DNA of 55,783 nt, the filler included, from Dimargaris cristalligena (taxonomy: Eukaryota), in the NCBI GenBank assembly GCA_003614675.1. It is 2 parts of 2 records of this genome, joined end to end, with 100 filler letters (N's around TTAATTAATTAA, not from the genome) between each part and the next. Parts side by side here need not be neighbours in the genome. Positions count along the whole stretch, not along the records: positions 27,981 to 55,783 come from ML002509.1; 1 more part is not named here. The stretch is one strand, 5' to 3'. A program made the position numbers and the translations under genes. Shown one piece after another: positions 27,477 to 50,289 of this stretch. How positions within the stretch are numbered: the stretch's first letter is position 1; the number at the start of each line of letters is the position of its first letter. The notes below the pieces were generated by a model that worked only from the letters and a program-made list of their open reading frames with translations, searched no databases and was not told the DNA's origin.

Positions 27477-27825
27477 AAGAGGCCGGGGTGGCCGCTGGAC
27501 CGTTTTTCCCCGGGATGTACGCGAATTTTGGCCCTTAGCTTGCAGTGTCCCCAGGGCTCAAATTTTCAACGGCCATCGTCATTGGCTTATTTTAGACTAG
27601 ACTAGATGACTACACCAACGAACCAGCACCATTTTAAGGGGGTCTGCCTTCAACACTTTTCTGTATAATCCCTTTTCAATTATAACATTGCTTATTTATT
27701 ACGCTAAATCCTCAATAAAGTCGATTTAATTATCCGAATAAATAAAAAACATGAACGGCTAGTGCATCTACAGTAGAATAAGAACACGAATACATTCATA
27801 ATAATTTTATAAGAAAAAACTAATT

Positions 27826-27880
27826 CGACAACAGCAGGATTTGAACCTGCGCGGGCGGAGCCCATATGATTTCTAGTCAT
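27826..27880 (-). tRNA. tRNA-Ser(AGA), 3' part (5' end lost in gap)
   Basis: Reverse complement ATGA-CT-AGA-AA-TCAT anticodon arm, long variable arm, GCAGGTTCAAATCCTGC T-arm, downstream T-run. Confidence 0.92.
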
Positions 27881-27980
27881 NNNNNNNNNNNNNNNNNNNN
27901 NNNNNNNNNNNNNNNNNNNNNNNNTTAATTAATTAANNNNNNNNNNNNNNNNNNNNNNNNNNNNNNNNNNNNNNNNNNNN
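27881..27980. other. Assembly gap of Ns containing the artificial linker TTAATTAATTAA (27925-27936)
   Basis: A palindromic linker with stops in all six frames, embedded in Ns. Confidence 0.95.
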
Positions 27981-29309: not shown

Positions 29310-30341
29310 TTAACCAATTGTATAGGCAAAATTCATACCAACAGATGGGTAAAGTAGCTATTCACTATAAGAAAATATGTCCCCATTATTCTACTATGTT
29401 TTGATTGTTATTACTATACTCTCCCTCTCTTCTAGTTACCAATTCATATTAGTTAGTCATTACCATTCTTTCCCCTACCCCTTATGTTCAAATATAACCC
29501 CACCCTTCCCCAATAGCTTACTCTTCAGCTTGCAACTTTCCTCTTGTTTTATCTATTCTGATTATTTATTTTAATAAACTCATTATTATCCCTTTGATTC
29601 CTGTCTGTCTTGCAGTACCTGGCCTCATTACCAGCCTGTCATAATAAACAGGCATGTCTGGAGGGTAGGAGTATCATAATTTGGAACTGTTGCATATATA
29701 TACAGGTGTAAACTAGATTACCAAAATATTAAAAAACTTTACTAACACCTCTTCAAGGACATACCTAAGAAAAATTAGCCCTCCTCAACCTTGTATTACT
29801 AGATCAAAGTTAATTTAATTATCTTTTCAAAAGTGACTTATAAAGTAACTATTTGAGGCTATGGAGTAGCCTACATAGTTCCCAGGCCTGAATCTTATTG
29901 AATAGATATAGGCCTAGATTTAGAGCTATACATCCCATAATTATTAATGACTACCAAAAAGGATACTCAAATACTGGGAAAAGGATGGTACAACCCAGCC
30001 CAGGGTCACCAGGAGGGAGTGGTAGAGAGTCATTTATACCATTCCTGAGCATTACAAATAAGTGATTACTAAAAACGGCTACTAGGATGACTTTAAATTA
30101 CAATTTTACAAAAAGTGGTAATTATTTAAACAACCCAAAAAGTGTATCAATGTACTAGTCATTTTAGAATAGCTATATCTTACCATTGAAAGAAAATGCA
30201 GACTTATTATTTTATACATACAAACTAGAAGAGAAGGGCTTTCTTTTAGTTATAACTATTTATTTTTCCTCTATTAAATCCTAAGTAATATATTTGTAAA
30301 ACCAAAAGTGTAAAACATGGATACCCTTTTTGGAGCCACTG
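29310..30341 (+). mobile_element. Degenerate Tc1/mariner DNA transposon (transposase relic + right TIR)
   Basis: GRSIIIWNC (~29660), ME*PT*FPGLNLIE*I*A (~29862; WPxQSPDLNPIE motif), IPEHYK*VITKNGY* (~30042), TIR-like end ctttttggagccactg (~30326-30341). Confidence 0.8.
29378..29641 (+). mobile_element. Candidate solo LTR nested in the Tc1 relic
   Basis: TG...CA ends, flanks aaata/taata (4 of 5 match), internal TATA-like motif and AATAAA; transposase-like sequence resumes right after it. Confidence 0.45.
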
Positions 30342-32237
30342 TGCATACACCCAGTTCATACACTATGCTGAAGTGCCATTATGTAGATATCCCTCCCTCC
30401 CCTGGTCCCTTTTGATAAGGTTTGACTACACCACCCCCTGCTGCTAAATAAGCTAGGAAACCTGCCATTGAGACACTGCCATAAGCCTGGAATGGCTAGG
30501 CATGATGCCCTCTCATACTATGATATTGTAAATACTTTAGTAGATTGGATACTTTACATTACACCCCAGAAACATGGTAGTAATAGATGTGTGAAGAACA
30601 GGTAGAGCTATACTATAGCCTTATTTATTGCTAAATAACACTGGGCTATCAAATGACCAGGAGGGCCACTAGGCTCTATAATTCAAGAAACTAGGGCCTA
30701 CTAAAGCACTCCCCAATCTATCCTGAACCTTGTATGCTATGAATAGAATGGACAGCACATCCGGATATACAGCCCCCGAATTTATGGCAAAGCCTTCAAA
30801 AGAGGTGTAGGCCGAAATTTGCATGCCTAACCCATGGTCCATGGAAGAACATTTCGATGACAAATGGTGCTCAGCTCAGATGGTTTAAACTGTTTACTCA
30901 TAAGATGTATTTATGAGAGGAATAGTTATGTTGCAATTAGTGCTGCCTTTTATTTGCCACTGCCGGCGGCCCATTACTCATGAATTTTCCGCTAAATTGG
31001 AACAGCTTATTATAACCCCCCTCCTTCAAAAAAAAAAGCGAAATTATATATTAAGTTGTAAAATAGCGATATTGGCGATATACCTATTTTTACATAATAC
31101 ATGTACTGTGCAGAATATGAAATGGCTACTAATGTAACACCTGGAAGCCATTTTGGTACCACTATACCCTTGGCTTGTGGCTTTTACTTTTGGCGCCCCT
31201 CCAAATGTAGAAAACTAAAGTGCCCTATTATAGGGCCTTGGTATACTGCCAACCCATTAGTAAAGCAGGACGTGCTTTTGACGCCGCACCCTAGTAAAGC
31301 CACCTGCCCGGGCCCTTGTTTGACTGTGGCCCGCCTAGATGAACACCCCAACATGCCTACTGTACCGCGCTGTCTGCACTCCCCTGCCCAGACTTTCCTC
31401 GTTCTATTTTTTCCATTTGCCAACTGACCCGAGCTTATAAGGATTCCTAATTAAACCCGGGTCTCATAGAATCCACCACTAAATGTAGCAATCGAGGGAA
31501 AGGGAAAGGCCTCTCGGCCATTTAACTTTGGCCAACGCCTACACCACCAATTTTTGTCGGCACGTACGCTTTATCATTGGTGCGATAATTTGGTGCCTTT
31601 TAAATAGTATCCGAAGGGAAAAATACCCGTTCTATTCCCGGTCCATATCCGTCCAGTCGTTACTATCATACCTAGCCGGATGTTAGGATAGAGACATGAG
31701 GCCGGTGGCCAAAAGGGGAGACGGGGAACATACCATAGGCCAAACGGATATTCTTTAATAAAATTGCATTCCGATTTCATCATTGCCAAGCCTAGTAGGT
31801 GCATGGGCAAATGGATTATGGGGATGAATTTTGTTTTGACAAAGGATAGTTGAACGGAATAAATGTGTACTCGCCGGTAAGGGAAGGGCAAAGGGACGGC
31901 TAATGTGAGCAACCCCCCCTCCCCTTCTCCTATATTTGACTAAAAACATAGGGTATAGTGCAATGCATACCTCTCTATTATAGTAAAGTCCAGTATATCC
32001 ATAACATGGGACCCATTAACCGCCCAGCTATGGACATCTCGCGGTCTATAAATAACGTTACATCCGCTCTCTCTCTCTCTCTCTCTCTCTCTATCATTAA
32101 TCCACTCTTCTACTACCATCCACCGCTAAGCCAGCAATTGCCTTTCATTTCCTACTACAGCTTTCCAACGTGTACCCTTTAAGTACCACTACTTTTCCCT
32201 CCCCTCACCCTTACCACTTTTCTCTCGTTATTCAGCC

Positions 32238-32492
32238 ATGAAGGTCCTGTCCGCTCTCGCTCTTGTTCTGGCCACCGTGGTCGTGGTTCGTTCCGCAACC
32301 CTCCCTACTACTACTACTTCTTCTGACGACTCGGCTCCCACTAGCCTTTCCAAAAAAGAAATGGCCATCAAGGCTGCCCTTGCTGTAGGTGGTGCTGCTG
32401 TTGCCTACTATGCTGCCGATGCGGCCATTGGCAAGTACAAGGAAAATAAGGCTGAAGCTGCGGATTTGGCGCCTACCTCTGCCACTGCCTAG
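32238..32492 (+). CDS. Small secreted pre-pro-peptide (84 aa), unknown function
   Basis: Signal peptide MKVLSALALVLATVVVVRSA, S/T-rich spacer, LSKK, Ala-rich helix; TATAAAT at ~32047; good start context (cagccATG). Confidence 0.75.
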   Translation: MKVLSALALVLATVVVVRSATLPTTTTSSDDSAPTSLSKKEMAIKAALAVGGAAVAYYAADAAIGKYKENKAEAADLAPTSATA

Positions 32493-33450
32493 GCTTGGTC
32501 GAGCTCCTTTTTCCACCAATCCACCCCCCATCCTGTGAGGGTTGCGCTATTGTACATTTAGATAAAAAATTAGCAAGTACTTTACGACTTGGATGTATAC
32601 TCTCCCCGCCTTTCTAGCTTTTATAAATTTACCAATCTTGTTGTTAGCTTGAGTTCAAATTCGGAGGTTTATTTTCCTTCATACTTTAAAATTAAATACA
32701 CATCCCCCTTTTTTATACATTAAAATACAATATACCTGAGTGACAGACTAGCCGGGCAAATGACAATGAGATAGTGGGTATTGTTAGAGGGAACCCAAGA
32801 CCATTTAATGATAAGTTGGATCCAACTACATGATCCCGATAGAGCACAGGCTATACAACTTTGATTAGGGGTAGAATAGTATGCCTAGCAGTCTACATGA
32901 TGGTAATTTTCTCATAAAACCAAATTATATCAACAAAGCCAGACTCGCCCTAGAAAATAGTTCGACCCGCACCTGGTTGCTTTTGAAGAGTGAATAAGCT
33001 AACCCATGTCTATCAATTTAGCAGTCTGATTAGGGAGGCAGTTTAAAGCACCAAACAGGACTGATATCTCATCTGTAGCTACTATACACAGTCTTTTGCA
33101 TTGCAATTCCCTACTGTCCCAGTCCAACCCTTAACGCCCCCCTGAATAACATATATAATATGGCATGTCAGAGGAACACCAAAAGGCCCACAATCATGAT
33201 CAAAGTGAATGCCGCTCAGGAACCGTTACGTATTTATTGTCAAAATCGAACCATGGATACGGGCGGCGATAAGAGAGAGGGGAGGGAGGGTTGATAAAGA
33301 AACGAGTGGGGGAGCCCTAAAGAGCCTGTGGGGGGTGTAGAATAAGAGGGTGGATTTTATTCAATGTGATTACAAAGAGAAGGTTAAGAGAGGGGGAGGG
33401 AATATGTCGGACACCGTATTTTGGCTAAAACAAAATTCGAATCCCTAGAC

Positions 33451-33879
33451 TTAAGCCCGGTTGTTGTTGGGGCGACGGCCGTGGAAGCGACGGTTATCGA
33501 AAGTGGCGACCTGGGGGTTGACGACATGGACGCCGGGGACGTTGTCGAAGTGCAGGGACTTCAGCAGAGCCTTGGTGTCGGAGTCGATTTCCACGCGACC
33601 GGTGTTAAGGGCCGAGACCTCGGGGACGTAGTTGTCCTTGCGTTCGCGCTCCTCTTCCTGCAGCTTGAAGGAGATACCGCGCACGGGACCGCGCTGAATA
33701 CGCTTCATCAGATGGGTGGTGAAGCCGGCGATCTTGTTGCGCAGACGCTTGGAAGGGATGATGGCCACCTCGTCGCAGATGCGCTTGTTGGTCTGGAAAT
33801 CCAGAGTCAGGCGGGGGTAGTATTTCTCAATAACGACCCGGGAGGCCTTCTTGACGGTCTTGGTTCTAACGCGGCCCAT
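33451..33879 (-). CDS. RPS17: 40S ribosomal protein eS17
   Basis: [63 protein letters not shown]. Confidence 0.98.
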
Positions 33880-33892
33880 GGTGGATTATTGT

Positions 33893-34441
33893 CTATAGGT
33901 GTCCAAAATAAGCGCGGTGGGGATAGGGCAAATGTGCAGGCAAAAAAAGTATGGGGGGGGGGGGGGGTAAGTAAGGTGGTGGATTCCCAATGGTTAGATG
34001 GGGGGAGAGGAGCTGACAGTCGCTTCGAAGTGATTCATGATTAGCCCATGGGGAATGGGGCGAACCAAATCCCCCGCTGGCCAATCGACCACATAACATG
34101 AGGGGTGGCTCGTATGCCCCGCACTTCGACACCGCATCTGAAAACATCCATCCATCGCCTAGCCGTTCCGTAAGTCCGGCGAATCGAGGGGGGTCAACAG
34201 TGGTTTCGAACTAGTGTTGTTACCACTGATATATTCGTAGTGTCGAATAGGTAGGTGTTACATCGATTAGCTCACAGACTGACGGATGGATGGCTAGTCG
34301 GTCGATCGATGGATGGGTGGGTGTTACTCGACGGGATGGAGAGGTTGGCCGATGATGGTGCGGGGGTTCGGAGTGGCATCCGTGACGAGCGTACGGGCTG
34401 GGTCGGCTAAGCTATAGAGGGTGGACGTCAATCGCACGTAC
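33893..34441 (-). other. RPS17 5'-UTR intron (structured)
   Basis: Donor GTACGT at 34441, branch-like CTAAC at ~33992, acceptor TATAG at 33893, 13 nt before the ATG. Confidence 0.75.
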
Positions 34442-35067
34442 CACTTCTCGAAATACGACGGCTGTGTGGGTATGTCAAAGCGAAAAAGAGAGGGAGCCTT
34501 GATGGGGTCCGGGTGGATTTAGCTTATAATATGGACTACTTTGTGGATGAATTTCTTGTCTACCCAACTTGTATGATCTGTGCCCCACCTGTAGAATGGG
34601 CCCCTCCATGGGTGCCGCTTACTTTACGCCGCCTAGCCAGCGACTACCACACTATTGCCGCAAACTCTCTTTCCATGAAGGGTGAGGGGGGGGGGGCGGC
34701 TCCTACCCCTCCATCTGGGCCAAATGGCATACAGGCCATAGTTTGCGTTAAATCACGTGATAAGTATAACCTAGGGTCTCTTTCAGGGCAATTTCGTTAT
34801 CGACCACGCACTATTCGGGTTTCCATGTGCTGTGGTCTATTCATAACTCTAATGTCAAAATACCTTGGAGTGGCCCTTGAATCTAAGCAACTATACCTAT
34901 CCTTCACAGGATTCCTGCCAGCGGGCGACCTCCCATCTCATATTTACCCTGTACTGGCTAATACCCCTAATACTATAGTCCCATAAAGCCCGCCCTTCCT
35001 GATTCCCCGCCCGTTCCCTACCCATTAATATATAGTATATTACACCATTGAAGGGGCCTTGCAAACT

Positions 35068-35793
35068 ATGGCGGACACCAGCTCCTCCGACGCAAATGGC
35101 AACCTCGGCTTCAAGCTCCGCAATTCCCTCCAGCGTTACCAGCAAGTAGCCCAACATTGTCTTGCGAAACTCGACTACACTCAGACCATCGCCTACCTGG
35201 CCAAAATATGCAGCATCCTCGATAATACCACCGACCCGGCCCTCCAGTCTTCCCTATTCACCACCCCGGACCAGCCCCCTATTTTAACCCTCCATCGGAC
35301 CGCACCGGTCTCCACGGACGGCGACTGCGCTCCGCCAGCCATACCAGCGGCCACTAATCCACCCTTTAGTGAACTGGATTTAGCCCTGGTGAATGATTTA
35401 TCCCTCGAGCGGCTAGTCGCGAACAACGGAAATCCAACGGATGGTCAACAGGCCGCTCTTCCCGGTTCCACTCCATGGAACCCGCATTCTCATTCACACT
35501 CACATTCGCACTCGCCAGCGAATGGCGCGGCTCGACTTAAGCGCTCCTTGGCTCACCTTAAGGGAGTGGCCTATTGGAATTTGGGGGATTGCTATCAACG
35601 GGCGGGACAGGTCATTCTGGCCGAGACGGCCTTTGAACAAAGCTCGCTGTGGTTTTATCGCGCGCGGGAAACCAAATGTAATTTACTGGCACTTGAGCAT
35701 CTGGTCCAGGTTGAAGAGGCATTGGGCAAACATCAATTGGCGGCTAACCTTAGGCGTCGTATGGCTAAAATTAAAGCAGCCGAAAGTTCCTAA
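35068..35793 (+). CDS. Hypothetical helical/TPR-like protein, copy 1
   Basis: 241-aa ORF from ATG; C-terminal AYWNLGDCY..AG..AE.AFEQS TPR-like pattern; (HS)n tract. Confidence 0.7.
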   Translation: MADTSSSDANGNLGFKLRNSLQRYQQVAQHCLAKLDYTQTIAYLAKICSILDNTTDPALQSSLFTTPDQPPILTLHRTAPVSTDGDCAPPAIPAATNPPFSELDLALVNDLSLERLVANNGNPTDGQQAALPGSTPWNPHSHSHSHSHSPANGAARLKRSLAHLKGVAYWNLGDCYQRAGQVILAETAFEQSSLWFYRARETKCNLLALEHLVQVEEALGKHQLAANLRRRMAKIKAAESS

Positions 35794-36610
35794 TGATGTG
35801 ACTTGTAGGGCGCGTTAGTAAGACTGGCGAGTATTTTCAGAATAATTTATTACACTTGTACATAATAATGCTCATACGACCATTGGGGTTGGAGTTTGCC
35901 CTTGCGTTTTTAGGTGCCGTTAAGTATCAACAATACACAAGCGAATCTCCCGTATTTTTAATAAAGCTAACCCCACTTCATCGTTTCAACTTCCAATGCA
36001 GTAAATCAATTGTAACTAGGTTGGCCAGCCTAAATATAGCTAATCTATTGTAGCTGTGCAAGAGGAAATGATGTGTGGTATTGACAGGTTGATGACCAAG
36101 TTAAGGTTGTCCGCCATCTAATTCACATCATCTAATAGCTGTCGTCACGCTGTATTTCGCTAAGACCCACCACCCTTCAGAGCCATAGGTATGGAAGGCA
36201 GGGGAGATCTTTCCCACAGAAAGACGGCAGGTAATAGCGCTTAAGATATTCCTAGCAATGCTACTACCCCCAACCATACACCCATTATTGGCCATCGAGA
36301 CTATAGGTGGAACTTGCGCCTTTCACTATTATCCAACCACGTGATATCAAATCATACCAACCACTAACTACTCTTATACACTATAGTCAAATCCCTCAAC
36401 CTCCTTGGCTGGGGAGATGGGAAGGAGGCGGCGGGGTGTGGTAATGGTGGGAGGAGGGGGGGGGTTTGGAGTAGGTTGGTGGGTGGTGAACTGCACAATG
36501 TAGGAAACACGGTAATTATAATCGATTCAGCCCCGCCATTGACAATTCCTCCTTTCCTCTTCACTCTTCCTGTATCAACCATCTGTGTCATATACAGTCC
36601 GAACGACGTG

Positions 36611-37017
36611 GTATGTATCCAACTCCCCAGAGACTAGCCGATATTCGATGACTTTACGGCCCTTCCAATCCATCCATCCACTGCTCCTACGCCCGTTGCC
36701 CCCCCGTCAGTGCCTCGCATGTCCGAATGTCGCGGAAGCCTCGTTGTAATGACCGGCCTTTACTAATGGTCACTACCTACCGAGATGTTCGATATTTTTT
36801 GGAGGACGGATCAAACAACAGCAGTTCACTGAACTGTATGCGAGTAATAACGGACCGACGAACGGATGGATGGATGGATAGGCCGATAAGTGTATATACA
36901 AACCCCTAAACGGAGTATCCGTGGCCCGTACAACGTTACTAATTTGTGATTATGCATATTTTATCTCGACTGACCACTCTGGTACCGATTCCCTTTATGC
37001 CTCCCCGATCGCCACAG
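36611..37017 (+). other. RPS10 5'-UTR intron (structured), copy 1
   Basis: Donor GTATGT at 36611, CTGAC branch at ~36970, acceptor CACAG at 37017, 8 nt before the ATG. Confidence 0.75.
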
Positions 37018-37025
37018 CCTGCAAG

Positions 37026-37313
37026 ATGCTGATTCCCAAGAAGAACCGCCAGCTCATCTACGAGACCCTCTTCCGCGGTATGTAACCAGTTTCATCGCTG
37101 TCCTTCCCCTCATCTCCGTCGCAACACGAACTCGGTACATTTATTGTCACTATTGGGGAATCCGCCTTCGGGCGGATTTCCCGGGTTTGTAGATTATGGG
37201 ATGCGCAAACTATTTCTTCTCACTAAGCTTACTGAATAATGAATACCCCGTTGATTGTGCGTAACGCTGTCTAATTCCCGAAATTCTCTATCCCCCTATT
37301 ATCATCTCTTTAC

Positions 37314-37347
<34 letters not shown>

Positions 37348-37749
37348 GGAGTCATGGTCGCCAAGAAGGACTACAATGCTCCTCGTCACCAGGACATCAA
37401 GGTGCCCAACCTGCAGGTCATCAAGGCCCTGCAGTCCCTGGACTCCCGCGGCTACGTCAAGACTCTGTTCTCGTGGCAGTGGTACTACTATACCCTGACT
37501 GACGAGGGTATCGAGTACCTGCGCACATTCCTCCACCTTCCCGAAGATGTGTACCCCGCTACCTTCAAGAAGGCCATCCGTGCCCCTGCCCCCAGCTTCA
37601 GCGGTCGCCCCGATCGTGATGGTTTCCGCCCCCGCGGTGACCGCGACAGCTACCGTCGTGATGACGGTGCCAAGAAGGAAGGTGCCACCGGTGACTTCAA
37701 GCCCGAGTTCCGTGGTGGATTCGGTCGTGGCCGTGCTGCCCCCCAATAA
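37026..37749 (+). CDS. RPS10: 40S ribosomal protein eS10, copy 1; exons 37026-37077, 37346-37749
   Basis: MLIPKKNRQLIYETLFR|EGVMVAKKD..PNLQVIKALQSL.SRGYVK..FSWQWYYYTLTDEGIEYLR. Confidence 0.97.
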
Positions 37750-38673
37750 AGAAAGAGCGGTAACACATAGCTGATTATGTACATCTCCCCCCCTTCCTCT
37801 CCCCAACACCCTCCCCCCTCTATCACAACAGTCTCTCCACACCGCTGCTCTTCTCTCACATCTGTCTTCTCGTCAAGTAGGTCGTGAGCGGGACAATTAC
37901 ACGCCACACCGTTTTCTTCAAAATAAAACTCACTTGCTGAATTTAATAAATATAACCGCTATCTTCCAGGTGACTCTTTGTGACGAATTAGTATTCATAC
38001 AGAAATATCTGTAAGGAATGATGTTCAGCCTGGGGGGAAATGTGTTTGTTTGTTGATGATGGGGAGCCCATTTCTCAAACAACGGCCTTGAGAGTCTAGC
38101 CCGGTAACTCTAAGATCAATCTGTTCGAAGCATCGGAGTCCGCGTCAATTCATTTGTCGTGATATCGCTGAAATCGATATTATAATCCTTTGAAATATGT
38201 ATTTAAGGGGCGATTTTCATTGCAGCGGTCGTTTTATAGTTGTGGGTTAAGTCACATTTTATTGAAGGCATAGTATTGAAGCTACAGGGGAGCGACACGG
38301 GTCTCCCACAAAAAAAAAATATAAAATAAGAACGCACAAAGTCAATATAACAAGTGCACTACACAACAAGGGAAGGGGGGCTATAAATTGGACAATTGGT
38401 CACAAATACACAACGAATAGTGGAATTAATGCAAAAAATTAGTCCGCGACAGGGAGGGGGACGTAGACCATGGATTAATTCCGGATGTTGGAAGAGAGGC
38501 GAGGCTACTACGAGGGGAAATGCGGGGGTTTAGCCTGCAGGGTCACAGTTGTACTAAGGACATATATAAAAAAAAGGGAGTATAGGGTAGGACGGATATT
38601 TGTAACGCAGGGAAATGTATATCACGAACATGAGCCAGAGAAGCTGTTTGGCGTCAGCGTACGGTTACGGAGT

Positions 38674-39953
38674 CTACATTTCCAATTCAAAGACACCGGG
38701 GTGCTTATCTGTTAGTTGGCATTGTAAAACGGGGCAGCAAAGTACAGCAGAAGCAAGAGGATGGGGTGAGAAGCCAAAACAAGAGGGTGTATATGGTGTT
38801 GACGGGGGGATATAGAAGGAGGTTGGTACCTCCCCTAATACGTTAAATATTTCATCTCATCGGACGATCGCATCAAAGTAACTAAGGTGCCAATGATTCC
38901 TTCGTAATCCACTGAATCTATCAATATAGAGAGAAAGCTGGGGTATAGCCTAGAGTCTGTTGCATACCTTTATCGGCATCCGCGTTCGCCGTCACGGGCG
39001 GGTCAAGCTCCTCGTCTTCCTCGGCCTGTTCCTCTAAGCTCATGGTCATAAGTTTGGGCAGTGGTTCGGCGCTGTTGAGCAGGTGGTTATCTCCGTTGAG
39101 CTGGGGCAGAGCCAGTTTGTTGGCGGGGGTATTGGGGGGCGCGCGGAAGCCGGGTTGTTGGTTACCGCCAATCGATGAGCTCAGCTTGCCCCCGTTTCCG
39201 GTGGAGGTGGAGTACGACTGCGGCTGGTGTTGGTTGTTGTTGTTGCTGTTGCTGCTGCCACCGCCACTGCGGAGATTACTGCTGTGGACGGGACGGGTGG
39301 ACTGCTGGGTCCCCAGATGGGGTGCGCGGTAGGTCCCAGCCGAGCTGCCAGTCACCCCGGGAATCACATTCATGCGCGACGGAGGAGTTTGCGAGAGGGG
39401 GGAGTTACTTAGGGCTAGGAGCTGTTGGCGACCGTAGACAATGCGGGTTCCTATCATAAATCAGACGATATGCGTCGCAAATGGGTATTCGGTACAGGAT
39501 TTAATAGGCAAAGCGTGGAGGTGAACAGATGGTCATTTAGTTAGCTGGGTATCCAATGTCGCCAGGCTAGGCCAGGGGCTTTCGTCGACTAGTGATTCGG
39601 AGTGGCATACACACCATTTACGTAGCATGTAATCCGGGATTCCCTCTATACAGCGTCCCCCTCTACGCTTAGGACGTGCCTGATACAGCCGGACATCATC
39701 AAGTACAGTGGCTGGCGGTATACAACACCCGTTGGAGCGCCCGCCTAAACAGGAGGGTGGCTAAGAATAGGTTTTTAGAGGGACAGGGGCCGCCAGGACT
39801 ATCAACGGTTAGGGTGTGCTTACCGCGTGGGGTGGTGGAGAAGATCGTTCCACCGGGAGTGGTACCGTAATCCTCGGGGATCTGCTCATCGGGCCGGGCA
39901 CGCCGGGTGGGGATATGCCGAGCGGAAGTCGGAGTTGTAGTGGAGGCGGTCAT
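38674..39953 (-). CDS. EIF4EBP: eIF4E-binding protein (4E-BP), copy 1; exons 39953-39824, 39450-38968, 38708-38674
   Basis: DYGTTPGGTIFSTTPR|GTRIVYGRQQLL (YxxxxL-phi), NSPLSQTPP; last exon DKHPGVFELEM* is a TOS-like motif. Confidence 0.92.
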
Positions 39954-40020
39954 GTTGAAGGCGGGCCAAGGAATATAGTGGGTAGGAACAGAGGGGAGGA
40001 GGGGGTATAGCGAGGGCAAT

Positions 40021-40362
40021 CTGGAAAAGGACAGGAAAGGGAAGAATGCACAAATAAGTATAGGTGGAACAGAGGGTGGTTTCCCCAGTGCTACTACATT
40101 CCAGGTTAAAAAAATGGCAGTAGATAGATAGGGCGGTGTAGGTTCACCTAGAGAGCTGACTGACTATCAAAGTGACTTTGTTGGAACTGGCCCAACACCC
40201 CCCTTCGGCGAGTGACACAGGGGCCGGGGGAATCCCTTCGTTCCAGGCGGGCCGCATCGGCTACTTGAGAGCCCGCGACGCCTGAGAAGAAGGGGGGATG
40301 GGTTGAGACGCGGCAATTACAGGCTGGGCGAAGTTTAATAATAATAGGCGAGAGCGACTTAC
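40021..40362 (-). other. 4E-BP 5'-UTR intron (copy 2 at ~46505-46846)
   Basis: GAG|GTAAGT donor; long pyrimidine tract ending in CCAG. Confidence 0.65.
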
Positions 40363-41551
40363 CTCAAAGCGGGCAGGGAATGCTTCGAGCTGGGAAGGAA
40401 GCAAAGCTATAAAACCGGGCAGGCAAAAAAAGTATGGGGGGGGGGGGGGGGTAAGTAAGGTGGTGGATTCCCAATGGTTAGATGGGGGGAGAGGAGCTGA
40501 CAGTCGCTTCGAAGTGATTCATGATTAGCCCATGGGGAATGGGGCGAACCAAATCCCCCGCTGGCCAATCGACCACATAACATGAGGGGTGGCTCGTATG
40601 CCCCGCACTTCGACACCGCATCTGAAAACATCCATCCATCGCCTAGCCGTTCCGTAAGTCCGGCGAATCGAGGGGGGTCAACAGTGGTTTCGAACTAGTG
40701 TTGTTACCACTGATATATTCGTAGTGTCGAATAGGTAGGTGTTACATCGATTAGCTCACAGACTGACGGATGGATGGCTAGTCGGTCGATCGATGGATGG
40801 GTGGGTGTTACTCGACGGGATGGAGAGGTTGGCCGATGATGGTGCGGGGGTTCGGAGTGGCATCCGTGACGAGCGTACGGGCTGGGTCGGCTAAGCTATA
40901 GAGGGTGGACGTCAATCGCACGTACCACTTCTCGAAATACGACGGCTGTGTGGGTATGTCAAAGCGAAAAAGAGAGGGAGCCTTGATGGGGTCCGGGTGG
41001 ATTTAGCTTATAATATGGACTACTTTGTGGATGAATTTCTTGTCTACCCAACTTGTATGATCTGTGCCCCACCTGTAGAATGGGCCCCTCCATGGGTGCC
41101 GCTTACTTTACGCCGCCTAGCCAGCGACTACCACACTATTGCCGCAAACTCTCTTTCCATGAAGGGTGAGGGGGGGGGGGCGGCTCCTACCCCTCCATCT
41201 GGGCCAAATGGCATACAGGCCATAGTTTGCGTTAAATCACGTGATAAGTATAACCTAGGGACTCTTTCAGGGCAATTTCGTTATCGACCACGCACTATTC
41301 GGGTTTCCATGTGCTGTGGTCTATTCATAACTCTAATGTCAAAATACCTTGGAGTGGCCCTTGAATCTAAGCAACTATACCTATCCTTCACAGGATTCCT
41401 CCCAACGGGCGACCTCCCATCTCATATTTACCCTGTACTGGCTAATACCCCTAATACTATAGTCCCATAAAGCCCGCCCTTCCTGATTCCCCGCCCGTTC
41501 CCTACCCATTAATATATAGTATATTACACCATTGAAGGGGCCTTGCAAACT

Positions 41552-42277
41552 ATGGCGGACACCAGCTCCTCCGACGCAAATGGCAACCTCGGCTTCAAGC
41601 TCCGCAATTCCCTCCAGCGTTACCAGCAAGTAGCCCAACATTGTCTTGCGAAACTCGACTACACTCAGACCATCGCCTACCTGGCCAAAATATGCAGCAT
41701 CCTCGATAATACCACCGACCCGGCCCTCCAGTCTTCCCTATTCACCACCCCGGACCAGCCCCCTATTTTAACCCTCCATCGGACCGCACCGGTCTCCACG
41801 GACGGCGACTGCGCTCCGCCAGCCATACCAGCGGCCACTAATCCACCCTTTAGTGAACTGGATTTAGCCCTGGTGAATGATTTATCCCTCGAGCGGCTAG
41901 TCGCGAACAACGGAAATCCAACGGATGGTCAACAGGCCGCTCTTCCCGGTTCCACTCCATGGAACCCGCATTCTCATTCACACTCACATTCGCACTCGCC
42001 AGCGAATGGCGCGGCTCGACTTAAGCGCTCCTTGGCTCACCTTAAGGGAGTGGCCTATTGGAATTTGGGGGATTGCTATCAACGGGCGGGACAGGTCATT
42101 CTGGCCGAGACGGCCTTTGAACAAAGCTCGCTGTGGTTTTATCGCGCGCGGGAAACCAAATGTAATTTACTGGCACTTGAGCATCTGGTCCAGGTTGAAG
42201 AGGCATTGGGCAAACATCAATTGGCGGCTAACCTTAGGCGTCGTATGGCTAAAATTAAAGCAGCCGAAAGTTCCTAA
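41552..42277 (+). CDS. Hypothetical helical/TPR-like protein, copy 2
   Basis: Protein identical to 35068-35793. Confidence 0.7.
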   Translation: MADTSSSDANGNLGFKLRNSLQRYQQVAQHCLAKLDYTQTIAYLAKICSILDNTTDPALQSSLFTTPDQPPILTLHRTAPVSTDGDCAPPAIPAATNPPFSELDLALVNDLSLERLVANNGNPTDGQQAALPGSTPWNPHSHSHSHSHSPANGAARLKRSLAHLKGVAYWNLGDCYQRAGQVILAETAFEQSSLWFYRARETKCNLLALEHLVQVEEALGKHQLAANLRRRMAKIKAAESS

Positions 42278-43509
42278 TGATGTGACTTGTAGGGCGCGTT
42301 AGTAAGACTGGCGAGTATTTTCAGAATAATTTATTACACTTGTACATAATAATGCTCATACGACCATTGGGGTTGGAGTTTGCCCTTGCGTTTTTAGGTG
42401 CCGTTAAGTATCAACAATACACAAGCGAATCTCCCGTATTTTTAATAAAGCTAACCCCACTTCATCGTTTCAACTTCCAATGCAGTAAATCAATTGTAAC
42501 TAGGTTGGCCAGCCTAAATATAGCTAATCTATTGTAGCTGTGCAAGAGGAAATGATGTGTGGTATTGACAGGTTGATGACCAAGTTAAGGTTGTCCGCCA
42601 TCTAATTCACATCATCTAATAGCTGTCGTCACGCTGTATTTCGCTAAGACCCACCACCCTTCAGAGCCATAGGTATGGAAGGCAGGGGAGATCTTTCCCA
42701 CAGAAAGACGGCAGGTAATAGCGCTTAAGATATTCCTAGCAATGCTACTACCCCCAACCATACACCCATTATTGGCCATCGAGACTATAGGTGGAACTTG
42801 CGCCTTTCACTATTATCCAACCACGTGATATCAAATCATACCAACCACTAACTACTCTTATACACTATAGTCAAATCCCTCAACCTCCTTGGCTGGGGAG
42901 ATGGGAAGGAGGCGGCGGGGTGTGGTAATGGTGGGAGGAGGGGGGGGGTTTGGAGTAGGTTGGTGGGTGGTGAACTGCACAATGTAGGAAACACGGTAAT
43001 TATAATCGATTCAGCCCCGCCATTGACAATTCCTCCTTTCCTCTTCACTCTTCCTGTATCAACCATCTGTGTCATATACAGTCCGAACGACGTGGTATGT
43101 ATCCAACTCCCCAGAGACTAGCCGATATTCGATGACTTTACGGCCCTTCCAATCCATCCATCCACTGCTCCTACGCCCGTTGCCCCCCCGTCAGTGCCTC
43201 GCATGTCCGAATGTCGCGGAAGCCTCGTTGTAATGACCGGCCTTTACTAATGGTCACTACCTACCGAGATGTTCGATATTTTTTGGAGGACGGATCAAAC
43301 AACAGCAGTTCACTGAACTGTATGCGAGTAATAACGGACCGACGAACGGATGGATGGATGGATAGGCCGATAAGTGTATATACAAACCCCTAAACGGAGT
43401 ATCCGTGGCCCGTACAACGTTACTAATTTGTGATTATGCATATTTTATCTCGACTGACCACTCTGGTACCGATTCCCTTTATGCCTCCCCGATCGCCACA
43501 GCCTGCAAG

Positions 43510-43797
43510 ATGCTGATTCCCAAGAAGAACCGCCAGCTCATCTACGAGACCCTCTTCCGCGGTATGTAACCAGTTTCATCGCTGTCCTTCCCCTCATCTC
43601 CGTCGCAACACGAACTCGGTACATTTATTGTCACTATTGGGGAATCCGCCTTCGGGCGGATTTCCCGGGTTTGTAGATTATGGGATGCGCAAACTATTTC
43701 TTCTCACTAAGCTTACTGAATAATGAATACCCCGTTGATTGTGCGTAACGCTGTCTAATTCCCGAAATTCTCTATCCCCCTATTATCATCTCTTTAC

Positions 43798-43831
<34 letters not shown>

Positions 43832-44233
43832 GGAGTCATGGTCGCCAAGAAGGACTACAATGCTCCTCGTCACCAGGACATCAAGGTGCCCAACCTGCAG
43901 GTCATCAAGGCCCTGCAGTCCCTGGACTCCCGCGGCTACGTCAAGACTCTGTTCTCGTGGCAGTGGTACTACTATACCCTGACTGACGAGGGTATCGAGT
44001 ACCTGCGCACATTCCTCCACCTTCCCGAAGATGTGTACCCCGCTACCTTCAAGAAGGCCATCCGTGCCCCTGCCCCCAGCTTCAGCGGTCGCCCCGATCG
44101 TGATGGTTTCCGCCCCCGCGGTGACCGCGACAGCTACCGTCGTGATGACGGTGCCAAGAAGGAAGGTGCCACCGGTGACTTCAAGCCCGAGTTCCGTGGT
44201 GGATTCGGTCGTGGCCGTGCTGCCCCCCAATAA
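43510..44233 (+). CDS. RPS10: 40S ribosomal protein eS10, copy 2; exons 43510-43561, 43830-44233
   Basis: Same as copy 1. Confidence 0.95.
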
Positions 44234-45157
44234 AGAAAGAGCGGTAACACATAGCTGATTATGTACATCTCCCCCCCTTCCTCTCCCCAACACCCTCCCC
44301 CCTCTATCACAACAGTCTCTCCACACCGCTGCTCTTCTCTCACATCTGTCTTCTCGTCAAGTAGGTCGTGAGCGGGACAATTACACGCCACACCGTTTTC
44401 TTCAAAATAAAACTCACTTGCTGAATTTAATAAATATAACCGCTATCTTCCAGGTGACTCTTTGTGACGAATTAGTATTCATACAGAAATATCTGTAAGG
44501 AATGATGTTCAGCCTGGGGGGAAATGTGTTTGTTTGTTGATGATGGGGAGCCCATTTCTCAAACAACGGCCTTGAGAGTCTAGCCCGGTAACTCTAAGAT
44601 CAATCTGTTCGAAGCATCGGAGTCCGCGTCAATTCATTTGTCGTGATATCGCTGAAATCGATATTATAATCCTTTGAAATATGTATTTAAGGGGCGATTT
44701 TCATTGCAGCGGTCGTTTTATAGTTGTGGGTTAAGTCACATTTTATTGAAGGCATAGTATTGAAGCTACAGGGGAGCGACACGGGTCTCCCACAAAAAAA
44801 AAATATAAAATAAGAACGCACAAAGTCAATATAACAAGTGCACTACACAACAAGGGAAGGGGGGCTATAAATTGGACAATTGGTCACAAATACACAACGA
44901 ATAGTGGAATTAATGCAAAAAATTAGTCCGCGACAGGGAGGGGGACGTAGACCATGGATTAATTCCGGATGTTGGAAGAGAGGCGAGGCTACTACGAGGG
45001 GAAATGCGGGGGTTTAGCCTGCAGGGTCACAGTTGTACTAAGGACATATATAAAAAAAAGGGAGTATAGGGTAGGACGGATATTTGTAACGCAGGGAAAT
45101 GTATATCACGAACATGAGCCAGAGAAGCTGTTTGGCGTCAGCGTACGGTTACGGAGT

Positions 45158-46437
45158 CTACATTTCCAATTCAAAGACACCGGGGTGCTTATCTGTTAGT
45201 TGGCATTGTAAAACGGGGCAGCAAAGTACAGCAGAAGCAAGAGGATGGGGTGAGAAGCCAAAACAAGAGGGTGTATATGGTGTTGACGGGGGGATATAGA
45301 AGGAGGTTGGTACCTCCCCTAATACGTTAAATATTTCATCTCATCGGACGATCGCATCAAAGTAACTAAGGTGCCAATGATTCCTTCGTAATCCACTGAA
45401 TCTATCAATATAGAGAGAAAGCTGGGGTATAGCCTAGAGTCTGTTGCATACCTTTATCGGCATCCGCGTTCGCCGTCACGGGCGGGTCAAGCTCCTCGTC
45501 TTCCTCGGCCTGTTCCTCTAAGCTCATGGTCATAAGTTTGGGCAGTGGTTCGGCGCTGTTGAGCAGGTGGTTATCTCCGTTGAGCTGGGGCAGAGCCAGT
45601 TTGTTGGCGGGGGTATTGGGGGGCGCGCGGAAGCCGGGTTGTTGGTTACCGCCAATCGATGAGCTCAGCTTGCCCCCGTTTCCGGTGGAGGTGGAGTACG
45701 ACTGCGGCTGGTGTTGGTTGTTGTTGTTGCTGTTGCTGCTGCCACCGCCACTGCGGAGATTACTGCTGTGGACGGGACGGGTGGACTGCTGGGTCCCCAG
45801 ATGGGGTGCGCGGTAGGTCCCAGCCGAGCTGCCAGTCACCCCGGGAATCACATTCATGCGCGACGGAGGAGTTTGCGAAAGGGGGGAGTTACTTAGGGCT
45901 AGGAGCTGTTGGCGACCGTAGACAATGCGGGTTCCTATCATAAATCAGACGATATGCGTCGCAAATGGGTATTCGGTACAGGATTTAATAGGCAAAGCGT
46001 GGAGGTGAACAGATGGTCATTTAGTTAGCTGGGTATCCAATGTCGCCAGGCTAGGCCAGGGGCTTTCGTCGACTAGTGATTCGGAGTGGCATACACACCA
46101 TTTACGTAGCATGTAATCCGGGATTCCCTCTATACAGCGTCCCCCTCTACGCTTAGGACGTGCCTGATACAGCCGGACATCATCAAGTACAGTGGCTGGC
46201 GGTATACAACACCCGTTGGAGCGCCCGCCTAAACAGGAGGGTGGCTAAGAATAGGTTTTTAGAGGGACAGGGGCCGCCAGGACTATCAACGGTTAGGGTG
46301 TGCTTACCGCGTGGGGTGGTGGAGAAGATCGTTCCACCGGGAGTGGTACCGTAATCCTCGGGGATCTGCTCATCGGGCCGGGCACGCCGGGTGGGGATAT
46401 GCCGAGCGGAAGTCGGAGTTGTAGTGGAGGCGGTCAT
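45158..46437 (-). CDS. EIF4EBP: 4E-BP, copy 2 (native upstream region); exons 46437-46308, 45934-45452, 45192-45158
   Basis: Same as copy 1 apart from one synonymous Leu change. Confidence 0.9.
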
Positions 46438-49400
46438 GTTGAAGGCGGGCCAAGGAATATAGTGGGTAGGAACAGAGGGGAGGAGGGGGTATAGCGAGGG
46501 CAATCTGGAAAAGGACAGGAAAGGGAAGAATGCACAAATAAGTATAGGTGGAACAGAGGGTGGTTTCCCCAGTGCTACTACATTCCAGGTTAAAAAAATG
46601 GCAGTAGATAGATAGGGCGGTGTAGGTTCACCTAGAGAGCTGACTGACTATCAAAGTGACTTTGTTGGAACTGGCCCAACACCCCCCTTCGGCGAGTGAC
46701 ACAGGGGCCGGGGGAATCCCTTCGTTCCAGGCGGGCCGCATCGGCTACTTGAGAGCCCGCGACGCCTGAGAAGAAGGGGGGATGGGTTGAGACGCGGCAA
46801 TTACAGGCTGGGCGAAGTTTAATAATAATAGGCGAGAGCGACTTACCTCAAAGCGGGCAGGGAATGCTTCGAGCTGGGAAGGAAGCAAAGCTATAAAACC
46901 GGGCAGTGGAAAGACACACAGCCCTCCCAAGGGGGAAAATATTCGCCAAACCACCACCGACTCCACTACTCACAGTCTCTCTCTCTCAGGCTTCACCATC
47001 AATTTTCCTCTCCAACCCACCTATACCACGGCCCTTTTTTTTCTAGTCATGATGGTTTCAGGCTCTCACACCAATGGGTGAAGGTTGTCGCGTAATCCAT
47101 GTAGTAATCGTTGGTTTTACCCCTCTATACTTTCGCTCATTTAGGCGGTTGGTGGGTTTACCATGTATACTATAAAGTGGCAGCACCTACTACGCAACTA
47201 AATATATATATATATATATATATATGTATTTAAATATATAAAGGAAAGCGAACAGGCGTAAGCACAGCAGCAGCGCCATTGATTTTCCATCCACCATACT
47301 TGGAAGGGCTGATTCGTAGCTGGTCAATCTGGGGGGCCCATGCCTCTTTCATCGATGAACACTCGCGACCAGGCTTCGCCATTGGTGGTGGTGTATCACA
47401 TCCCTTCTCAAATGGGGCGGCCATCGTTGCTTCGGTGTCCTTGTGACCCTAATTCACCCATTATCCTCCAAAACGGCATCCGCCTCTCTCTACCACCCCG
47501 ACGCATAAGCAGGGGTGTGGGGTGAGTGTGTAGGGTTAGTATAGCATGGTGGGAGTATGCCATGTAAGCCCTACTGCTTCCTCCCTTGACCTCGTACTCC
47601 ACCACTTGGCTCCGATACGGCCCCGGCCTGCTGAGTGAAACAGTCCACAGGAGGACTTTCCCACTCCGCTATGCCAGGTGCTGCTTATCGAGTCACAGCG
47701 TAGGGCTTGTACGAAACATCCCAAGGTTCTACTAGCGGCGTACCCTCATTATGCGGGGCGTCTCGTATCGAAACCCTTCTTACCCCGAGGACCTAATGGG
47801 GGAAGGTTTGGCTTGGTATTCGCCAGGTAAGTAGAACCACCGCCGTCTCGCGCTAGTGGGTATCCTCTATACTAACATGTGGTTTATGTTAATGGTGTTC
47901 ATTACCCACTCACATGATATCTAACTGTACTGCAATGCTTCCGTTATAATCACGTCGTCTGAACGGTGTTTCAGTTTGGAGTTAATAGGACACGTATTAT
48001 AAACAGTGCTATTAAAATCCAAAAGCAGCTTACCCGTTTACCAAATTGCTGCTCATTTAAACCACTTGCCTTACATTAGCCGTGGGGGGATATTCAAAGG
48101 CCTATTGCATCTATTATATCACTGCCCCTTTCGAATTACCAATAAGGGTGGCTGTTTGGTTAGCTCCTATCCGCCAGTCTGAAAATAGCGATTCGACCAA
48201 GCGGAGATACACCTACGTAGCTTGGAGGAAACATAGTGGTGATGGAGGATGTACATAGCCATGGTGTTACTCGACCCTGTGAGTCGACAAACCGGTCTTA
48301 AATCACCACTAACGACCATCCCCCCGCTTATTCTCGTCCCTAATTTTAAACGGCACATACATGGGCTGGGTTTGGGCGTTTCCATACCAAGAAAAAAGAG
48401 CCGGAGATTCCGAAGTTTGGAAATGTAGTGGAGAAATGATAATATATGTATAGTATCTAAATATGTCACTGTTCTCTAGATGTTGAAATCATACAGCGCA
48501 GGCCTTGCTTACTTTTATACAGGCTAGACCAAGGTAAGAAACGCCGAAAATGGTAGTTTCCTAAAAAGCCTTAGTTGCATTAACTTCTAAAACGAGCCAT
48601 ATTCATATATCCGGCTGTCTGGCCAGAAAGCGTAAAAGAAGTGTAGCGACACTTTGCCTTAAATCGGATGGGGAGGAGTAGGTAGCAGGAGATGGCCCGC
48701 CCTACTTTTGGCCATACTTCCAAATACTCGGGAGTGTCCAGTCGCGTATTATTGCCTATACTATTTTCAATTTGGCGGTGGCCCTGTACTACTCGTTGTA
48801 ACGCTCTTGTATAACCGGAGTTCAATCATCCGATATATTTTCATATGAATCCGCTATTTCTACCCCCCCTTCCTCCCTTAGTTTCAGATTTTACGAATCA
48901 GCTAGGGCGAAGTAGGTAAACAACACGTCATCGAATCCGTTGGAAAAGCTAGGTTGATGAAAAACTGGTTTAGTAAATTCTTGATATCCTGGTTTTTGTA
49001 GAGCGGTGTTAGTTGAATAATCCGGAGACAGTATTTAAATTGCAGCGATGGTAATAAGTAGTGCTCAAGCCCAGATACGTAGAGTTAGGAGGGACTATTT
49101 AGCAAATTAGCCTCTTTTGTAAAGCGGATTGTTAAATCCCCTTCTTGTAACTAGCGCCTGTGAGACCCGGCGCGGGGGCAATCGTTACTAGGTGCTGTAT
49201 TGATAACAACACCCTCCCCCAGCCTTCACAATAATCAAAAACCGCGTTCGTGTCCACCGTTGAGGCAGAGATATACAATCCACCTCTAAAGGACTCCCCG
49301 CTCCCGGACCAGAAAATGTTGAAACCAATCTAAACTTAGCCTATAGTGAATATACTATATTACAATAATGAATAGCTGATGTGCAATAGTCATTTTTATT

Positions 49401-49860
49401 ACCACTATCAAATTGCCCCATTTACACTGAAGTTCCTCTTAGCCGCGTCTATTATATTTTAACCAAATCCGAGGTTATGCTACTTCCGTTGGTGGACACT
49501 GCCTTGTCAGACGAGGTAGCGTAACGACCAAGTGGTCTAGTGCGACTTGAACCCAATACAACCAGCCTCTACCGAATCCGAAAAAAAGGGGGGCTGAGGC
49601 GAGACTGCGAAATACGTTCTATAATCCAAGAGGAACGCACTGGTGGTGAAGACCGTCTAGATATGGCCCCAGCGCTAGGTATATATAAAGCTGACCATAC
49701 CTGTGTCTCTGTCCGTTGCCAAACACCTCCCTTCACAGTTTACACCGCTTTCCATCTATTTTTGCATGAGCCATTATATTTACACCTCTATATTATATTA
49801 TTCTGTGGATATCCTATAATCATCTCTCTTTAAAGTATACCCCAGCTGTTTTATTGAATT

Positions 49861-50289
49861 ATGTCATTTCCTGGTCGTCTTGCGTACAGTATCGTGGCGG
49901 TCGCTTTGTTCTATAATGGAGCTCTCACTCAACCCATCGAAATAGGCAACTCTCCCGCCAAACCAACTACCTCCCAAATGCCGTATGCCTCTTGGTCCAG
50001 TGCGTATGGGTTTACAAACTACCACCCCGCCGGCGAGTCTATCGGTGACCATAGCGCAATTCCGCCCGTTTACGCGAGTACGGACAACGGCAGTGCATCC
50101 TCTGACCCGTTAATGGTGCCCACTTGGTCCTATAAACTCGGCTTTATGGATGAGGCTGGAAACCAAATTGCTACCTTATCCCCCAGTGAACAAGTAAGGC
50201 ATACTCCTCGACCAGTACCCGAGGAATGGGCCCGTCACCTCCCTAACAACTACGCCGCCAACTCCCAAAATCCGCCTAGCCATAAGTGA
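49861..50289 (+). CDS. Hypothetical secreted protein (142 aa)
   Basis: Signal-peptide-like N-terminus; TATATAAA at ~49682; AATAAA downstream; two internal W-S-x-x-x-G-F motifs. Confidence 0.65.
   Translation: MSFPGRLAYSIVAVALFYNGALTQPIEIGNSPAKPTTSQMPYASWSSAYGFTNYHPAGESIGDHSAIPPVYASTDNGSASSDPLMVPTWSYKLGFMDEAGNQIATLSPSEQVRHTPRPVPEEWARHLPNNYAANSQNPPSHK

Follow-up and report, generated by a model that had tools for sequence, protein, structure and literature searches.

Tandem duplications with breakpoints in two genes are a known source of chimeric genes and of shuffled regulation (PMC5460883). In a Drosophila yakuba population survey, Rogers et al. (2017) report that most whole-gene tandem duplicates are without expression change and that altered expression goes with chimeric structures and reshuffled regulatory elements (PMC5460883). 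Here we describe a near-identical tandem repeat in the assembly of the fungus Dimargaris cristalligena (GCA_003614675.1), whose internal joint places the upstream region of the ribosomal-protein gene RPS17 in front of one of two copies of a gene for 4E-BP, a predicted repressor of cap-dependent translation. The window (the whole stretch of DNA analyzed, 55,783 nt) consists of parts of 27,880 and 27,803 nt on either side of positions 27881-27980, which read N44-TTAATTAATTAA-N44 and are taken as a six-frame-stop linker; the repeat lies on the 27,803-nt part. A preliminary description of this locus had proposed that the joint creates a chimeric gene, an RPS17 promoter and leader driving 4E-BP. 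Its account of the architecture, with the joint at GCAG (40419-40422), is borne out by self-BLAST and by the boundary sequences, and its naming of the two genes, both on the minus strand, is solid by Pfam, by homologues and by the match to human 4E-BP1. Its coordinates are likewise all correct on the minus strand, including the intron start at 40925, CTAAC, TTTTATAG at 40407, CCTTTTCCAG at 40021 and the ATG at 39953.

Self-BLAST of the window returns five non-self alignments, dominated by the pair 33936-40422 and 40419-46906. This pair forms a head-to-tail direct repeat of 6,488 columns at 99.923% identity (four mismatches and one gap), far above chance similarity and with 0 N bases inside it. 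The offset from copy 1 to copy 2 is 6484, as given by the coordinates of 4E-BP, RPS10 and an open reading frame (ORF) resembling tetratricopeptide-repeat (TPR) proteins.

33936-40422: copy 1 of the duplication unit, 6,487 nt (self-BLAST and pairwise alignment)
40419-46906: copy 2 of the duplication unit, 6,488 nt (self-BLAST and pairwise alignment)
40419-40422: joint, 4-bp GCAG microhomology common to both breakpoints, 13 nt from a G14/G15 homopolymer (boundary sequences)

With a slash marking the breakpoint, the left boundary reads TGTGCAG/GCAAAAAAAG and the right boundary CCGGGCAG/TGGAAAG, GCAG being present in both; the joint reads CCGGGCAG/GCAAAAAAAG, with GCAG present once, at 40419-40422. 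The nearby homopolymer, G14/G15 on the plus strand, is C14/C15 on the minus strand. Pairwise alignment of the copies gives five differences (copy 1 / copy 2):

33952 / 40436: G14 versus G15 homopolymer, extra G in copy 2
34777 / 41261: T/A
34917 / 41401: G/C
34921 / 41405: G/A
39395 / 45879: G/A, synonymous in 4E-BP (Leu, CTC/CTT), as had been described; the two long ORF translations are identical

These comprise one homopolymer indel, three intergenic substitutions and one synonymous substitution, a pattern that is as expected of a young, real duplication. A 145-bp segment of the RPS17/TPR-like intergenic region (34777-34921 / 41261-41405) contains three of the four substitutions, against a single one in the other 6.3 kb. 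Such clustering points to a haplotype patch, a tract of conversion or an error confined to this segment more than to divergence spread evenly over the unit.

Both breakpoints are situated just upstream of the coding regions of the two minus-strand genes. The left breakpoint (33936) is inside a putative RPS17 intron, 57 nt upstream of the ATG (33879), and the right one is 56 nt upstream of the 4E-BP leader donor. The breakpoints may lie inside transcription units, which hinges on start sites and 5′ untranslated region (5′UTR) introns read from motifs. As the preliminary description had it, copy 2 is without the RPS17 coding sequence and acceptor (AG at 33894-33893, minus strand), both of which are outside the repeat, and 4E-BP copy 1, the one downstream of the joint, has lost its native DNA upstream of the breakpoint, which is retained only with copy 2, past 46906. 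Ahead of its leader donor, 4E-BP copy 1 is left with 56 nt of native sequence. The 4E-BP gene downstream of the joint was correctly described as intact: it is complete, and its protein is identical to that of the upstream copy. The features on which the argument turns are the following:

33451-33879, minus strand: RPS17 (eS17) coding sequence, single exon, stop included; outside the repeat and single-copy
33893-34441, minus strand: putative native RPS17 5′UTR intron, 549 nt, donor G/GTACGT, acceptor TATAG (from motifs)
40926-41016, minus strand: putative RPS17 core promoter and leader exon as carried by copy 2, copy-1 equivalent 34442-34532 (motif reading)
40407-40925, minus strand: predicted chimeric intron, 519 nt, with 503 nt from the RPS17 intron, then the 4 nt of the joint, then 12 nt from upstream of 4E-BP, ending TTTTATAG
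40363-40406, minus strand: 4E-BP leader remnant and predicted internal exon, 44 nt, no ATG, followed by a GTAAGT donor (40362-40357)
40021-40362, minus strand: putative 5′UTR intron of 4E-BP copy 1, 342 nt, donor GAG/GTAAGT, acceptor CCTTTTCCAG; in copy 2, 46505-46846
38674-39953, minus strand: 4E-BP copy 1 coding region, exons 39953-39824, 39450-38968 and 38708-38674 (stop included), 215 aa
45158-46437, minus strand: 4E-BP copy 2 coding region (copy 1 + 6484), native upstream DNA kept

The region upstream of RPS17 looks like a short leader exon followed by a 5′UTR intron. In copy 2, a TATA-like ATATTATAAG (41016-41007) is followed ∼40 nt further down by the pyrimidine tract CTCCCTCTCTTTTTCGCTTT (40980-40961), the putative leader exon ends at 40926, and the donor AAGTG/GTACGT would start the intron at 40925. 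The native RPS17 acceptor is preceded by a pyrimidine-rich tract of 120 nt, AG-free from 34013, in which CTTAT (33912), two CTTAC and CTAAC (33997) occur. Copy 2 holds 503 nt of this intron, including CTAAC at 40481-40477, and is without CTTAT, the acceptor and the coding sequence. The branch site that had been attributed to copy 2 is therefore kept as far as CTAAC is concerned, but the nearer branch-like CTTAT was lost with the native acceptor. The sequence CCATCCATCC / GGATGGATGG occurs eight times in the window, against a chance expectation of 0.23 (0 of 100 shuffles reach 8), at 34145-34157, 34284-34293, 36670-36679, 36864-36877 and each of these + 6484, i.e., at four loci doubled by the duplication. 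Every site is in the putative RPS17 intron or upstream of RPS10, and the sequence may be either a cis-acting element belonging to ribosomal-protein genes or just a small repeat. The counts of CCCTAA, TTAGGG and CACGTG in a check for ribosomal-protein promoter motifs are unremarkable. The idea that the RPS17 intron hosts a small nucleolar RNA was dropped, given 0 Rfam matches in 30000-50000 (E up to 1) and no C-box or D-box strings in the putative intron.

On the other side of the joint, 4E-BP seems to have a 5′UTR intron of its own, with 67 nt from its acceptor CCTTTTCCAG (40021) to the ATG at 39953. The splice scheme first proposed led from the RPS17 leader in one step to 40407 or to 40021. 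Both of these putative acceptors stand, but a single splice is no longer the simplest prediction, since a GAG/GTAAGT donor at 40362, which had been missed, would add the 44-nt exon. The AG at 40408-40407 (TTTTATAG) is the first after CTAAC (40481), with an AG-free pyrimidine tract between them. A CTAAC ∼90-100 nt upstream of the acceptor, without an intervening AG, is found alike in the native RPS17 intron and in a coding intron of 4E-BP (intron a); this spacing makes a distal branch plausible and, with 40407 as the first AG, makes splicing from 40926 to 40406 plausible as well. The simplest predicted chimeric transcript consists of the RPS17 leader exon, 40406-40363 and 40020 onward. Its predicted leader, and those of the forms in which splicing differs, are as follows:

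161 nt, 0 upstream ATGs: putative leader exon, 44-nt exon and 67 nt
117 nt, 0 upstream ATGs: without the 44-nt exon
503 nt, 2 upstream ATGs: 4E-BP 5′UTR intron retained
1,022 nt, 12 upstream ATGs: fully unspliced

Efficient translation of 4E-BP is predicted from the spliced forms only. A GTGAGT at 46973-46968 (minus strand), 77 nt upstream of TTTTATAG in the native copy, is a possible donor of a further 4E-BP leader exon; if this donor holds, TTTTATAG would be a real acceptor and both breakpoints would be intronic.

The explanation that we favor, with confidence a little short of even, is a recent tandem duplication, real and chromosomal, with a promoter swap for 4E-BP copy 1 as its consequence. 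A very recent 6,484-bp duplication would have arisen by template switching or end joining at the 4-bp GCAG microhomology, with one breakpoint in the 5′ non-coding part of RPS17, inside its apparent 5′UTR intron, and the other in the 4E-BP leader region. With the two genes sharing the minus strand, the joint would disturb neither RPS17 nor the upstream copy of 4E-BP, and a second 4E-BP copy would have been created with its whole upstream regulatory DNA swapped for the RPS17 promoter region. The joint fuses ∼6 kb of RPS17 upstream DNA, the putative leader exon and 503 nt of putative intron to the 4E-BP 5′ region, and since the duplicated RPS17 side reaches beyond the divergent neighbor of this gene, no upstream element within ∼6 kb is missing. 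Transcripts would start near 40975, at the RPS17 start site carried over by the duplication; splicing would join 40926 to 40406 and 40363 to 40020, and the product would be a 4E-BP mRNA with a pyrimidine-rich leader of 161 nt and no upstream ATG. Part of the 4E-BP output would then come under ribosomal-protein-gene regulation. The regulatory replacement holds independently of the leader-exon and intron model for RPS17; were that model wrong, the RPS17 upstream region would directly abut the 4E-BP leader.

In model organisms, one TOR signal switches on ribosomal-protein genes and inactivates 4E-BP. The feedback brake on translation suggested in the preliminary description is reasonable as physiology, if speculative for this locus; it would link ribosomal-protein transcription with the 4E-BP brake on cap-dependent translation, two arms of one growth pathway. 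It would also represent, in an obligate mycoparasite, a natural rewiring of growth control observed only a few mutations after it arose. That the duplication is chromosomal, fixed and expressed, with the level of the 4E-BP repressor tracking ribosome production, is nevertheless quite improbable in our estimation. If real and expressed, the locus would be an unusually clean promoter capture, in which coding sequences are unaltered, neither parental gene is disrupted, and no more than a handful of substitutions mark its age.

Phi29 chimeras are normally low-coverage singletons, and single-cell assemblers are built to remove them. Phi29 also favors small circles, and circles bounded by microhomology exist in fungi; SPAdes, for its part, would write out twice an assembly-graph loop of this kind. 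The genome data found in print for this species were produced as follows: spores were sorted at 1-100 cells per well, amplified by phi29 multiple displacement amplification and sequenced as 2x150 HiSeq libraries, which were coverage-normalized and assembled with SPAdes in single-cell and careful mode (k = 21/33/55); scaffolds <2 kb were removed, pooled libraries were co-assembled, and individual libraries were also assembled and annotated (PMC6784888). The text of that paper reports cell-to-cell single-nucleotide polymorphisms in D. cristalligena, gives three of four Zoopagomycota as non-haploid with the species unnamed, and has 0 occurrences of "transcriptom" (PMC6784888). As for the ploidy of the species, which bears on the five differences, a review names Dimargaris only in other connections. 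The preliminary description had named an artefact among its caveats, and this caveat is heavier than was implied.

Several considerations weigh against the favored explanation. The joint is known from one assembled contig of 27,803 nt, a 6.5-kb repeat is too long to be bridged by 2x150 reads assembled with k up to 55, and a loop in the graph would yield two copies whatever the origin of the joint reads; if the contig comes from such data, the second copy rests wholly on joint-crossing reads. The five differences could equally be allelic or cell-to-cell polymorphisms spread over two passes, while in a haploid genome they mildly favor a real duplication. The promoter, the start site and both 5′UTR introns are read from motifs. 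The RPS17 intron, which had been called structured, folds barely better than its shuffles (z = -1.54; 2 in 100 shuffles fold equally well), and its inverted repeats are imperfect ones of 12-13 nt, of the CATCCATCC type; that claim is accordingly weak. The RPS17 and RPS10 upstream regions share no 9-, 10- or 11-mers (shuffle means 1.39, 0.42 and 0.17), and with no motif common to the two ribosomal-protein promoters of the window, the "strong" RPS17 promoter is an assumption of the preliminary description.

Among the rival explanations, a haplotype mis-join, in which two alleles are laid in tandem, is ruled out by the unduplicated flanks and by the exact 4-bp overlap with no gap. An artefact would have a phi29 template switch joining 40423 onward to the sequence ending at 40418, with the resulting loop walked twice by the assembler and a genome that has a single unit and no chimeric gene. 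The homopolymer of 14-15 nt, only 13 nt from the joint, is a likely site of slippage or stalling that would suit such an origin, the copies cannot be phased by short reads, and the published data of the species are of the amplified (single or pooled cells), co-assembled short-read SPAdes kind (PMC6784888). The 4-bp GCAG and the spacing of 6.5 kb also fit phi29 joins of nearby segments (PMC1855051). In the analysis by Lasken and Stockwell (2007), however, the 475 phi29 chimeras found among 108,944 reads comprise 406 inverted and 69 direct ones, and those both direct and <10 kb apart are the rarest class (11 of 475), although 90.9% of such proximal direct joins have at least 2 bp of complementarity (PMC1855051). 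The Dimargaris joint is like these chimeras in linking segments <10 kb apart (6,484-bp spacing) through short complementarity (4 bp, compared with 2-21 nt in that study), and unlike them in being direct with reversed order, whereas the typical class is inverted (85%, 406/475; PMC1855051). Further, a second pass over one edge should give identical copies unless the reads are polymorphic, yet five sites differ; a single chimera would ordinarily be removed as a low-coverage singleton; and this contig may not come from the amplified data. Taking these together, we regard an artefact as rather unlikely, while giving it real weight. Were it nonetheless correct, the locus would serve as a warning about near-identical tandem repeats in single-cell short-read assemblies, where read-level support is needed before biology.

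An extrachromosomal circle, i.e., a 6,484-bp circular DNA excised at GCAG and then favored by phi29 in rolling-circle copying, would have a joint of the same topology as a tandem duplication, from which an assembler cannot distinguish a chromosome plus such a circle; phi29 amplification was used for the published data of the species (PMC6784888). The five differences between passes would then need a polymorphic source, however, and a single circle in the spore is an ad hoc assumption, which leaves this explanation highly improbable. The duplication could also be real and without such a regulatory effect, the downstream 4E-BP being silent or using a residual start site of its own, as a neutral and possibly polymorphic copy-number variant; transcripts from the RPS17 promoter might be mis-spliced, intron-retaining (with 12 upstream ATGs) and degraded. 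The near-identity of the copies leaves little time for selection, the branch-like CTTAT nearest the RPS17 acceptor is lost, the unspliced leader holds 12 upstream ATGs (two if only the 4E-BP 5′UTR intron is retained), and the 56 nt of native 4E-BP leader surviving upstream of the donor could hold a start site. The absence of expression change in most whole-gene tandem duplicates of D. yakuba is in keeping with this outcome, but chimeric structures and shuffled regulatory elements are the very class that does change expression there (PMC5460883). Also opposed to it are the strong succession of splice signals, in which no AG interrupts the tract leading to 40407, and the presence of only ∼0.5 kb of intron sequence, without a terminator-like gap, between the promoter copy and 4E-BP. 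We consider a duplication without regulatory effect unlikely. With or without the promoter swap, a real chromosomal duplication is probable, and the swap is the form of it that we favor.

The identity of the relocated gene is well supported. The Pfam family PF05456 (eIF_4EBP; cut-off 24) is matched by the exon at 39826-39953 (38.2 bits, E 1.5e-9, profile positions 5-44 of 117) and by the exon at 38924-39451 (43.7 bits, E 3e-11, positions 46-97 of 117), and among solved structures the protein matches human 4E-BP1 (E 4e-17). The 4E-BP coding sequence is within the unit and intact in both copies, which encode identical proteins, and the named D. cristalligena 4E-BP of 215 aa (P0121) maps to each of them as three segments, all at 100%. 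This protein is the best, at 100% identity, of five that a search with the large exon returns among 130 candidates, the others being 4E-BPs of Dispira and Dimargaris xerosporica; the C-terminal DKxxGVFELE(M) block is common to D. xerosporica, and a PPNTPANK block to Dispira. The eIF4E-binding motif is present, with RIVYGRQQLL aligned to RIIYDRKFLM of human 4E-BP1 (YxxxxLL), and TTPGG, TTPRG, NSP, TPP and IPGVT align with human 4E-BP1 blocks. We take the TTPGG, TTPRG, NSP and TPP blocks to be TOR sites, and the C-terminal FELEM resembles the human TOS motif, FEMDI. Binding of eIF4E, repression of cap-dependent translation and control by TOR are predicted for the fungal protein from homology. 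It is like metazoan 4E-BP1/2 and Thor in the aligned blocks TTPGGTxFSTTPxGTRIxYxRxxLxxxxNSPxxxTPPxxxxxIPGVT, and unlike them in its length (215 aa, versus 118 aa in human) and in a ∼110-residue insert, rich in S, N, Q and G, that separates the 4E-binding core from the C-terminus.

Public records already carry an annotation of this 4E-BP. To our knowledge, the model yeasts of the Dikarya are without the 4E-BP family. In the literature that was checked, metazoan-type 4E-BPs of fungi are barely discussed: one paper touching on early-diverging fungi names 4E-BP only in passing as a TORC1 effector, a survey of fungal eIF4E has it only in the reference list, and in a paper on TORC1 outside the Dikarya the terms 4E-BP, 4EBP and eIF4E occur 0 times, each in the main text, with supplements that may hold more. 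If real and expressed, the present locus would bring the metazoan-type 4E-BPs of fungi outside the Dikarya to wider notice. The exact proteins of RPS17 and 4E-BP (P0001 and P0121) are listed on two contigs, the longer of 144,426 nt, and the locus is therefore present on another contig.

The other parent of the joint, RPS17, is identified by Pfam PF00833 (33454-33879, minus strand; 211.8 bits, E 2.6e-63, profile positions 1-121 of 122) and by 83% identity to the named eS17 of Tieghemiomyces and Dispira. Apart from the RPS17 5′ region without its coding sequence and the complete 4E-BP coding region, the unit contains two genes that the preliminary description had missed:

35068-35793, plus strand: TPR-like ORF (P0126), 241 aa, divergent neighbor of RPS17; copy 2, 41552-42277
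37026-37749, plus strand: RPS10 (eS10) copy 1, exons 37026-37077 and 37346-37749; copy 2, 43510-44233

The TPR-like ORF has 41-42% identity to hypothetical proteins of Dispira, where its only relatives were found, and its Pfam TPR_12 score (21.4 bits) is under the cut-off of 30.1. RPS10 matches Pfam PF03501 (S10_plectin) at 37351-37746 on the plus strand (E 8.3e-34). A (TA)n microsatellite at 37318-37345 runs straight into the acceptor AG of the RPS10 intron, and another, at 47203-47240, is ∼300 nt upstream of the native 4E-BP leader. The other four self-BLAST alignments lie in the first part of the window: collinear with one another and 76-84% identical, they pair 444-2199 with 4780-7505 and represent an older repeat, dispersed or segmental. 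A scan of the window for tRNAs with ARAGORN gives 0 genes; the minus-strand sequence at 27820-27880, which abuts the first N run and holds GGATTTGAACC, resembles a tRNA 3′ half cut by the contig end or by a mask.

Set beside the chimeric genes of D. yakuba (PMC5460883), the Dimargaris locus has much in common. Two genes on the same strand are involved, the breakpoints are in or beside both, the joint would combine a 5′ part from one with a 3′ part from the other, the parental genes remain intact at the outer edges, and the expected outcome is a new expression pattern rather than a change of dosage. It differs in that the fusion is wholly 5′ non-coding, a swap of promoter and leader with no protein chimera, and in that it comes from a single genome of an early-diverging fungus, read from sequence alone, rather than from a population sample. 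As read here, the Dimargaris joint would be a 5′-non-coding instance of the known chimera-forming tandem duplication.

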